A stretch of DNA of 63,574 nucleotides, counting the filler, from Candidatus Woesearchaeota archaeon (GTDB lineage Archaea; Nanobdellota; Nanobdellia; Woesearchaeales; GCA-2687795), in the NCBI GenBank assembly GCA_030753365.1. It is 5 parts of 5 records of this genome, joined end to end, with 100 filler letters (N's around TTAATTAATTAA, not from the genome) between each part and the next. Parts side by side here need not be neighbours in the genome. Positions count along the whole stretch, not along the records: positions 10,269 to 41,429 come from JASMCJ010000028.1; 4 more parts are not named here. One strand, written 5' to 3'. Shown piece by piece: positions 20,704 to 31,625 of this stretch; the first letter of the stretch is position 1; the number at the start of each line of letters is the position of its first letter. A model generated the notes under the pieces. That model saw nothing but the letters and a program-made list of their open reading frames with translations, searched no databases and had not been told where the DNA came from. The position numbers and the translations under genes are program-made.

Positions 20704-20819
20704 AAGGGACAGCTTCCTTGGGTTCCCATATAAAATACAGTACAACCAAAGACGTTGGCTTGTTTAACTTCTGAGTTCGAAATGAGATCAGGTGGAACCA
20801 AGCCACTATGACCGTCCTC
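20704..20819 (-). rRNA. rrf: 5S rRNA (stand-alone)
   Basis: Minus strand GGACGGTCATAGTGG...CCACCTGATCTCATTTCGAACTCAGAAGTTAA...GCTGTCC; helix I ends pair; TATA-like box about 25 nt upstream; ends approximate. Confidence 0.93.
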
Positions 20820-26459: not shown

Positions 26460-26463
26460 ATAA

Positions 26464-26550
26464 TGCCCCTACCGGGATTTGAACCCGGGTCACAACCTCC
26501 GCAAGGTTGCATCATATGTAGTTAGAACATATCCACTAGACTATAGGGGC
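26464..26550 (-). tRNA. tRNA-Arg(GCG) with a 15-nt D-loop intron (about 26516-26530)
   Basis: GCCCCTA/TAGGGGC acceptor, CAACC-TT-GCG-GA-GGTTG anticodon arm, GGTTCAAATCC T arm; removing ATGTTCTAACTACAT gives a 72-nt cloverleaf. Confidence 0.9.
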
Positions 26551-26737
26551 ATATTTAAAGGGTAATTCTTAGTGCATTTATAATGGCTATTTACTACTAA
26601 CGCGTGATTAAAACAGAAATGTTTATAAATCGGCTCTTTTTATTATTAGTTATGAGCAGAATAAAACGTATTGCTAGAAGGATTAAAAGAAGTAAGGAAA
26701 AGCAGAAGATGCTTAGTCTTATACTGTTAAGACCTGG

Positions 26738-30517: not shown

Positions 30518-31296
30518 ATGAAAACTAAAAAAATCAATCATGAAATAATCAAGAGTTTCTGTGAATTATATAACCATGACAAATCTTTGCGTACTATTGC
30601 CAAGGAAAAGAAAGATTCTCCTAATACGGTTAAGAAATACCTTCTCTTGGAAGGGATAAAGGTAAAATGTAAAAATATTGTTTATAGCACCAAAACTCAT
30701 GATCACTTATTAAATGGATTATATTTAGGTATATGGGCAGGAGATGGCACTCATTATATGGACAAAGGCTATAGGATTAAGATTTGTTGTCATAGAAACA
30801 ATATTGAACTAATAAATTTTATACAGGATTCTTTATTAAACTTTTTAATAAAAAAAGTAATTTACAAATAGAAAAAAAGTACAATAGAACTAACATAAGA
30901 TTCAATTCAAAATTCATTTATAATTATGTTTATGATTCCCTTGATTTTGGGTCAAATAAAACACATACTGTAGGTCTTAAGAAACCAATTGATTCTTATT
31001 CAAATAGATTCTTAAGTGGCTTTCTTTTAGGCTTAGTGTTGACTGATGGATATTTAAAGGAAAGATTTTGTTTTAATACAACATCACCTAAACTAGCAGA
31101 AAATGTAAAATATATCCTTGGTAGGTTAGGTTATAAGGCTAATCTATATAAGCATAGAAGAGGAGAGCAAGGATGGAAAGATCTTTGTATGATTAGTTTA
31201 ACAAAATGTGATAGTAGAAGTCTTTTGGGCATATTAAATAAAGAGTTAGAGAAAGTTGGATACAATAAAGGATTCAAGATTATAAAAGGATATTAA
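30518..31296 (+). pseudogene. Two-motif LAGLIDADG endonuclease-like gene with N-terminal HTH, one frameshift near 30840-30857
   Basis: LYLGIWAGDG in the first frame; the -1 frame is open from about 30840 and reads ...FLSGFLLGLVLTDG...FNTTS.KLA. Confidence 0.8.
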
Positions 31297-31300
31297 AAAA

Positions 31301-31469
31301 TGGGCCCGCGGAGACTCCCAAATCCAGAGGAATTTGTGGTCTCCCTCTGGGATATTTGAACTCCGGACCTTTATCGGGCTATTGCCTCACGATGTCTAAG
31401 TCTGGTTATCAGTATCGCAATCAAAAAAACTTTTGATTCGTGCGCACCACCAGACTATGCTACGGGCCC
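31301..31469 (-). tRNA. tRNA-Ile(GAU) with four introns
   Basis: Exons 31469-31439, 31413-31407, 31393-31388, 31370-31355 and 31314-31301 join to a 74-nt cloverleaf GGGCCCGTAGCATAGTCTGGTGGTGCGCACGACTGATAATCGTGAGGTCCGGAGTTCAAATCTCCGCGGGCCCA. Confidence 0.88.
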
Positions 31470-31502
31470 ATAGAACTAATTAGTTAATAAAGGGTTTATA
31501 AA

Positions 31503-31625
31503 ATGCTCGGAATTTTCCATCATGTTTTTGACAAAAAATAAGCTTCGCTTGTTGTGATTTCAGAAAAGTAGAAAATTCTGAGCATGCTCAAGAATCGTTC
31601 TGTTGTTCTGATGGTTCTTGACATT
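31503..31625. repeat. Intergenic multi-hairpin element (family B)
   Basis: ATGCTCGGAATTTTC/GAAAATTCTGAGCAT inverted repeat enclosing AAGC-TTC-GCTT, then a TCAAGAATC/GGTTCTTGA stem. Confidence 0.7.

Follow-up and report, generated by a model that had tools for sequence, protein, structure and literature searches.

A tRNA-Ile(GAU) gene interrupted by four short introns in a Woesearchaeota-type archaeon, with 6- and 7-nt exons and the same layout in related DPANN sequences

According to passages of a 2014 review (PMC4033280) and of the 2021 paper on tRNAscan-SE 2.0 (PMC8450103), an archaeal tRNA gene holds at most three introns. Up to three introns are also described in excerpts of a study on the nuclear tRNA genes of Cyanidioschyzon merolae (PMC3728597), where their ordered removal was followed by RT-PCR. 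A bioRxiv preprint of October 2026 reports, in the portion of its text that was available, up to five intervening sequences in a single Asgard tRNA gene. The preliminary description of the locus analysed here had placed the known maximum at three introns, which agrees with the passages of the review and of the tRNAscan-SE paper but has been overtaken for Asgard archaea by the preprint. Among the partly available matches listed in the literature searches, there was no report of a four-intron tRNA gene in DPANN archaea. For the splicing enzyme EndA, excerpts of Kaneta et al. (PMC5829648) tie the cleavage of relaxed motifs to inserted loops and describe homotetramer-type enzymes with a C-terminal loop in DPANN archaea.

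The host of the present locus is a marine Woesearchaeota-type DPANN archaeon (G000), whose assembly of 0.897 Mb consists of 78 contigs with 35.8% G+C and is 94.5% complete. Positions given without a contig refer to the window, which is the whole stretch of DNA that was analysed (63,574 nucleotides, filler included). A tRNA-Ile(GAU) gene is located on the minus strand at 31301-31469 and comprises, in 169 nt, five colinear exons and four short introns. Read on this strand from 31469 to 31301, the G+C-rich acceptor strand comes first and its complement last, followed by the discriminator A and six T. The features of the locus are as follows.

31495..31503, minus strand: A/T-rich, TATA-like box (TTTTATAAA), 26-34 nt upstream of tRNA base 1, read from the sequence
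31439..31469, minus strand: exon 1, 31 nt, with the acceptor 5' strand, D arm, position 26 and anticodon-stem positions 27-30; identical in the same-genus orthologue (G001)
31414..31438, minus strand: intron 1, 25 nt, at 30/31; HBh' type with a CGCA/TGCG central helix, a 7-bp inner helix and an outer helix of only 1 bp
31407..31413, minus strand: exon 2, 7 nt (ACTGATA), positions 31-37 including the anticodon GAT
31394..31406, minus strand: intron 2, 13 nt, at the canonical site 37/38; bulge-helix-loop type with a CTGA/TTAG central helix, no inner helix and the anticodon stem as outer helix
31388..31393, minus strand: exon 3, 6 nt (ATCGTG), positions 38-43
31371..31387, minus strand: intron 3, 17 nt, at 43/44; HBh' type with an ATCG/CGAT central helix, a GGC/GCC inner helix and no outer helix
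31355..31370, minus strand: exon 4, 16 nt, with the variable loop, the T-stem 5' strand and T-loop positions 54-59
31315..31354, minus strand: intron 4, 40 nt, at 59/60; TTCA/TGGG central helix, the T stem as outer helix and a CCAGAGG/CCTCTGG hairpin beyond a 2x2 mismatch
31301..31314, minus strand: exon 5, 14 nt, with T-loop position 60, the T-stem 3' strand, the acceptor 3' strand and discriminator A73
31295..31300, minus strand: run of six T, directly adjoining A73

Excision of the four intervals by coordinate (31414-31438, 31394-31406, 31371-31387 and 31315-31354) leaves a product of 74 nt, which ARAGORN calls as tRNA-Ile(gat). Its cloverleaf is complete, the anticodon loop measures 7 nt, and all four stems are fully paired, the D stem by three Watson-Crick pairs and one G-U pair. 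The exons measure 31, 7, 6, 16 and 14 nt and the introns 25, 13, 17 and 40 nt; three of the introns lie inside the 17-nt anticodon arm, hence the exons of 7 and 6 nt. The observation of a four-intron tRNA-Ile at this location is confirmed, and the coordinates, intron positions and lengths, micro-exons included, are as the preliminary description had given them. The 3' end of the gene does not encode CCA. The six-T run is a likely transcription stop, and such a run is likewise found 3' of most tRNA genes parsed in the host genome. By its position, the box TTTTATAAA is a putative archaeal promoter; archaeal promoters lie outside the coverage of the sigma-70 promoter scan. No ORF of at least 50 aa overlaps the gene. 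A split or permuted tRNA gene was excluded, since the five exons follow one another in order on a single strand, all within 169 nt. Self-splicing group I or II introns were rejected as well, with inserts of only 13-40 nt and no Rfam family reaching its threshold.

The geometry of the splicing motif is the same at all four introns: a tetranucleotide of the exon, two nucleotides upstream of the 5' cut, is paired with a tetranucleotide of the intron that lies two nucleotides upstream of the 3' cut, and a 3-nt bulge holds the cut site on both sides. In each of the central helices CGCA/TGCG, CTGA/TTAG, ATCG/CGAT and TTCA/TGGG all four pairs form; among them, intron 2 has a single G-U pair and intron 4 has two. 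These helices, the bulges and the details of the inner stems had been described beforehand and were found as written. Under the contiguous-helix rule that was applied, all four motifs fall short of a strict hBHBh' motif; introns 1 and 3 are of the HBh' type, and introns 2 and 4 of the bulge-helix-loop type, where the inner helix of intron 4 counts as one pair followed by a mismatch. At random pairs of cut sites in the host genome, a 4-bp central helix occurs with a frequency of 0.021, or of 0.040 if a one-base ambiguity of the boundaries is allowed. On the latter basis, the chance of such a helix at four sites is about 2.6e-6, and the helices are beyond chance. Each intron boundary can be shifted by one base with the same product, as the flanking base is repeated.

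A custom intron-tolerant cloverleaf finder was used, which is based on a 7-bp acceptor stem, conserved D- and T-loop bases and paired stems, and accepts introns only at a 4-bp helix. It gave the tRNA-Ile locus a score of 29.5, compared with 7.5 for the best of 11 loci in a reversed-genome decoy, which was run under a slightly narrower rule with T-arm introns only after the first five bases. Across the host genome, 20 loci scored at least 24.5, one mis-parsed locus 20.5 and all others at most 11.5. Under strict and relaxed rules alike, the tRNA-Ile locus yielded two parses only, both with four introns; parses with fewer introns were absent. The finder demands a perfect 7-bp acceptor stem, the pair G53-C61 and a 4-bp central helix. 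It recovered only about 20-22 tRNA genes where at least 40 are expected, and roughly ten additional loci were parsed manually.

Standard tools had been expected to overlook this gene, and this holds for ARAGORN and for the Rfam tRNA model. ARAGORN made no call on the unspliced locus with or without its intron mode, and the Rfam tRNA model gave no match at the gathering score or at E<=10, neither in the whole genome nor in the 471-nt region alone. Around the locus, eight weak Rfam matches at E<=10 lie far below the family thresholds, and none of them is to a tRNA or intron family. A check for another tRNA-Ile(GAU) gene had been proposed, and neither BLAST with the spliced product nor the finder revealed one in the 94.5%-complete assembly. 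The Rfam tRNA model detects 13 genes in the host, 19 in G001 and 12 in G002, a member of another family of the order, compared with 30, 39 and 38 in the related genomes G031, G029 and G026, respectively; ARAGORN makes 16 tRNA calls in the host genome, some of them wrong. Incomplete tRNA sets in DPANN archaea were remarked upon by Kaneta et al. 2018 (PMC5829648), who, in the available part of the text, suspected introns as the cause and left the matter unsettled. Given the low Rfam and ARAGORN counts in the host against the 38-39 Rfam hits in two related Woesearchaeota-type genomes, tRNAs 'missing' from DPANN genomes are at least partly an artefact of intron load.

Forty related genomes were searched at the DNA level, which gave evidence that is free of the splicing motif. 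The orthologue in G001, a genome of the same genus, has all 74 exon bases identical to those of the host gene, in three blocks. It has one intron of 19 nt at 37/38, one of 20 nt at 59/60 and no others, and both are unlike those of the host. Two related genomes carry an intron-free tRNA-Ile(GAU) gene, which differs from the spliced product at 4/74 positions in G031, where it scores 64.8 bits on the Rfam tRNA model, and at 9/74 in G029. The D-stem difference in these intron-free orthologues affects both sides of one pair. A single intron is present at 37/38 in G010 and G030 and at 59/60 in G025, and two introns at 30/31 and 59/60 in G021; likewise, the tRNA-Ile(GAU) genes parsed by the finder in related genomes have 0, 1 or 2 introns at the same sites. 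The site of intron 1 is thus empty in G001, G031 and G029 and occupied in G021 and in nine four-intron metagenome contigs.

These contigs stem from a metagenome scan with a pattern of the micro-exons and introns at both 37/38 and 43/44, so that at least two introns are forced by the search. It returned 22 contigs, for which threading on exon anchors resulted in nine genes with four introns, eight with three and two with two; two further contigs were cut by the contig end and one was not re-found. A scan of genomes added 'Candidatus Nanoarchaeia archaeon isolate SMAG_U8017', whose gene is interrupted at all four host positions. The ten four-intron genes found elsewhere (nine contigs and SMAG_U8017) show six combinations of intron lengths and differ in intron sequence too, and all ten spliced products are called as tRNA-Ile(gat), with 65-74 of 74 bases in common with the host product. 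In the two independent contigs L176 and L177 the gene is identical to that of the host. The pattern of the genome scan was too loose and had returned at least 121 stretches, mostly chance matches in bacteria; none of 80 stored loci was parsed by the finder, and three DPANN loci (L077, L091 and L121) were read by eye. The survey of relatives suggested in the preliminary description revealed 0 to 4 introns at fixed sites and the same four-intron layout in ten related DPANN sequences.

Intron 3 is informative here, as its central helix and bulges are fixed by the search pattern and its inner helix is free. In all 12 distinct intron-3 sequences found elsewhere, an inner helix of 2-8 bp adjoins the bulge with different letters, examples being GGC/GCC, GGAA/TTCC, GGATA/TATCC, AAGTC/GACTT and GAATC/GATTC. 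Because introns at 30/31 and 43/44 occur in diverged lineages, their loss in G001 would be favoured, with an independent gain in the host line as a possible alternative. For introns 1-3, BLAST found no paralogue in the host genome, and so no source.

A separate observation concerns the 59/60 site, where six tRNA genes from four genomes (one for Ile, one for Ala, three for Leu and one unnamed) carry introns of a 40-nt family:

31315-31354 of the window, minus strand: member in the tRNA-Ile(GAU) gene, intron 4
L017, 1403-1449: further member
L002, L003, L007 and L019: further members

The members start with TATCC, share a conserved GAGAC.ACAAAT loop and end with GATTTGRRAG. From their sequences, it looks as if this family was copied between tRNA genes or transferred between genomes.

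The tRNA genes of the host are frequently interrupted. In 20 strictly parsed genes, there is no intron in five, one in five, two in seven, three in one and four in two, and all of the roughly ten additional loci read by eye contain at least one. When 22 parsed genes with 33 introns in all are sorted by the contiguous-helix rule, 12 introns have both flanking helices, 11 lack the inner, eight lack the outer and two have neither. An intron at 59/60 ending in ...RAAG|T is found in at least ten host genes. Two more genes have four introns:

G000:C61:35093-35247, minus strand: tRNA-Asn(GUU), introns at 15/16, 30/31, 37/38 and 43/44, and micro-exons of 7 and 6 nt as in tRNA-Ile(GAU)
G000:C47:1381-1564, minus strand: tRNA-Tyr(GUA), four introns including one at 43/44; rests on comparison with G023

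The tRNA-Asn(GUU) genes parsed in relatives have 0, 1, 2 or 3 of the four host introns. For tRNA-Tyr, the search for helix-bulge geometry found none at the long intron in the anticodon loop, the middle one, which was placed solely by comparison with G023, whose gene keeps only this intron. Judged from the DNA, the four-intron gene is not a one-off, with two more in the same genome and the Ile layout recurring in related DPANN archaea.

Several further loci are worth recording in their own right. At 26463-26551 of the window (minus strand), ARAGORN reports an 89-nt tRNA-Val(aac), and our own parse gives a tRNA-Arg(GCG) with a 16-nt D-loop intron after G19; the locus scores 55.6 bits on the Rfam tRNA model. 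The window also contains a 5S rRNA gene at 20704-20819 (minus strand, 76.3 bits). A homologous 103-nt intron at 59/60 is shared by tRNA-Gly(UCC) (G000:C15:19821-20012) and the three-intron tRNA-Ile(UAU) (G000:C13:1937-2176); the presence of the latter suggests that a modified CAU tRNA may not be needed for reading AUA. A second copy of the 3' end of the tRNA is present some 95 nt downstream of tRNA-His (G000:C61:1307-1472) and of tRNA-Leu(CAA) (G000:C19:1457-1712), in both cases after a shared motif (TTCGTGGGAYTTCCGA), and these duplicated ends with TTCGTGGGAYTTCCGA resemble a scar-like trace of an inserted element. At G000:C20:15005-15240 (minus strand), the 3' three-quarters of a tRNA-Glu(UUC) are clear and a matching 5' acceptor strand was not found where expected on the contig, which may point to a split gene or to an interruption of the acceptor or D region by an intron. 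In G002, a tRNA-Leu(CAG) at L002 1314-1569 apparently has four introns, in the D loop, at 37/38, in the variable arm and at 59/60, where the variable-arm intron is misplaced by our own parse.

The host encodes one EndA, a 200-aa ORF with matches to PF01974 (94.9 bits) and PF02778 (64.4 bits), and one RtcB (PF01139, 517.5 bits). The catalytic Tyr, His and Lys of EndA align with those of solved enzymes, the best matches being the N. equitans alpha subunit and the M. jannaschii homotetramer enzyme. The closest relatives of this protein share 70-85% identity with it and carry the labels Candidatus Woesearchaeota or Nanoarchaeota. Compared with the N. equitans subunit, the host EndA lacks six residues between the catalytic Tyr and His; the alignment with the M. 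jannaschii enzyme is gap-free over residues 29-200, and that with 1a79 runs end to end. The host EndA thus has no insertion relative to the M. jannaschii enzyme, and the genome has many relaxed motifs. Neither Pfam nor a self-search at E<=10 detected a second EndA-like gene in the 94.5%-complete genome, a search that a very divergent beta subunit could escape. G001, G002, G031 and G029 also have one EndA gene each, and in the five proteins, from intron-rich and intron-poor hosts, no core insertion or deletion tracks intron load.

A splicing pathway can be proposed from these data. The 169-nt precursor would be transcribed from the A/T-rich promoter and end at the T run. The single EndA would then cut within the 3-nt bulges flanking each 4-bp central helix, RtcB would ligate the exons, the ends would be trimmed and CCA would be added. 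From the sequence, we infer that all four introns are excised and the exons ligated in vivo. Introns 1, 3 and 4 have helices of their own and would be recognisable in the primary transcript, so they could be removed first and in any order. Intron 2 is probably removed last, because its outer helix is the anticodon stem, which is split by intron 1 and shares bases with the helix of intron 3. Specifically, the 3' strand of the anticodon stem that intron 1 splits consists of the same bases that are paired in the central helix of intron 3. In the fold of the 169-nt precursor, the motif of intron 3 is fully part of the minimum-free-energy structure. For intron 1, this fold contains the central helix and the 5' bulge, and the strict motif costs +4.1 kcal/mol; the motif of intron 4 lies outside the fold at +3.5 kcal/mol. 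For the motif of intron 2, the cost drops from +12.9 kcal/mol in the primary transcript to +4.2 kcal/mol after the removal of intron 1. Folding and geometry thus lend support to the earlier proposal that competing motifs in the anticodon arm imply an ordered splicing. A 6-nt exon is the shortest that can hold its own strand of a 4-bp helix plus two bulge bases, and this minimum may explain the sizes of the micro-exons.

As a side observation, eight bases of intron 2 (31394-31406, minus strand), ACCAGACT, are the exact complement of the D-loop sequence AGTCTGGT (31449-31456). This pairing dominates the predicted precursor fold and is absent from the orthologous introns; the complementarity of ACCAGACT and AGTCTGGT may be due to chance.

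The reading that we prefer, with a probability of roughly 0.9, is that the locus is a functional tRNA-Ile(GAU) gene, the only one found in the assembly, with five exons and four introns spliced by proteins. It could instead be a decaying pseudogene whose insertions are not removed, with the Ile codons read by a tRNA encoded elsewhere, for instance in the 5.5% of the genome that the assembly lacks; the relaxed motifs and the insertion scars at other tRNA genes of the same genome would fit such a decay. This is nevertheless highly improbable, as all 74 exon bases are identical to those of the sister-species gene, the four inserts lie exactly at sites with a 4-bp helix and 3-nt bulges, and neither the upstream A/T box nor the T run is disrupted. 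Moreover, the same four positions are occupied in lineages whose mature sequences differ by up to 9/74, with the helix of intron 3 preserved by changed letters, and neither BLAST nor the finder located another Ile(GAU) gene. A chimeric contig in which assembly or binning joined tRNA fragments would be conceivable for a fragmented metagenome assembly of 78 contigs. The sequencing runs make this vanishingly improbable: at least half of the sampled words of the stretch were present in 20 of 24 listed runs from 16 studies, and all of them in 18. These are metagenomes from marine, seawater and vent samples, and most of the runs may be sources of the assembly. The locus is nevertheless letter-identical and without joints in contigs of four runs, two of which are not flagged as a possible source, and the gene is identical in the independent contigs L176 and L177. 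The contigs of the four runs contain no intron-less DNA alleles, and no RNA was found among the listed sequencing runs that contain the locus.

A further alternative accepts a spliced gene and differs in the number or boundaries of the introns, with intron 4 at 56/57 or with one-base shifts to 31/32, 38/39, 44/45 and 60/61. The repeated flanking bases allow such shifts with the same product, and the second parse of the finder, with intron 4 at 56/57, scores 28.5 compared to 29.5. However, the 56/57 parse would result in a T loop unlike that of the Ile orthologues, all of which have TTCAAAT, whereas the 59/60 site with its ...RRAG|T end recurs in the 40-nt family and in at least ten host genes. 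As the finder gave no parse with fewer than four introns, a different count is not favoured either, and this alternative as a whole is very unlikely. Beyond the preferred reading of a functional four-intron gene, a more far-reaching hypothesis would be that the four-intron layout is old and selectively maintained in a DPANN clade rather than recent clutter, that its transcripts are processed by a plain single-subunit EndA without the inserted loops to which relaxed-motif cleavage has so far been tied, and that splicing is an obligate cascade with the removal of introns 1 and 3 as the precondition for cleavage at intron 2. Taken together, we regard this hypothesis as tentative and rather doubtful. 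If it were true, the specificity of the host EndA would be broader than that of any characterised homotetramer enzyme.

A conserved tRNA gene with four introns exceeds the limit of three given in the reviews, and indicates that exons of 6-7 nt are tolerated. The combination of one unadorned alpha-type EndA with many relaxed motifs provides a direct test of the idea that special loops are needed. In addition, the gain and loss of tRNA introns can be studied well in this series of relatives, whose fixed sites hold between 0 and 4 introns and which includes a sister species with identical exons but other introns.

Compared to the described systems, the host resembles the Thermoproteales, for which passages of PMC4033280 and PMC8450103 likewise describe short protein-spliced introns at canonical and non-canonical sites with helix-bulge motifs, an ordered removal of neighbouring introns and similar introns in different tRNA genes. 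According to these passages, the Thermoproteales have at most three introns per gene, in contrast to the four found here, three of them in one anticodon arm with exons of 7 and 6 nt. Crenarchaeota have an alpha/beta EndA pair with a specific loop, whereas the host has a single alpha-type EndA gene. The Asgard preprint, as far as its text was available, likewise describes more than three intervening sequences per gene, located at boundaries with splicing motifs and in many cases missed by standard annotation. It concerns another superphylum, with the word DPANN absent from the available text, and its census is based on DNA alone. ARMAN/Micrarchaeota are DPANN archaea too, and excerpts of PMC3239211 describe tiny genomes with non-canonical and multiple tRNA introns and relaxed motifs; their EndA is a 395-aa three-unit epsilon2 enzyme, in contrast to the 200-aa single-unit EndA of the host. 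In C. merolae, the excerpts of PMC3728597 likewise report several introns at D-arm, 37/38 and T-loop sites, with the intron of the weaker motif removed later, an order established experimentally there and predicted from sequence for the host tRNA-Ile. The splicing mechanism is of a kind already known, and the novelty lies in the conserved four-intron architecture, with three of the introns in one anticodon arm, and in its occurrence in a Woesearchaeota-type lineage that has just one EndA, of a plain type.
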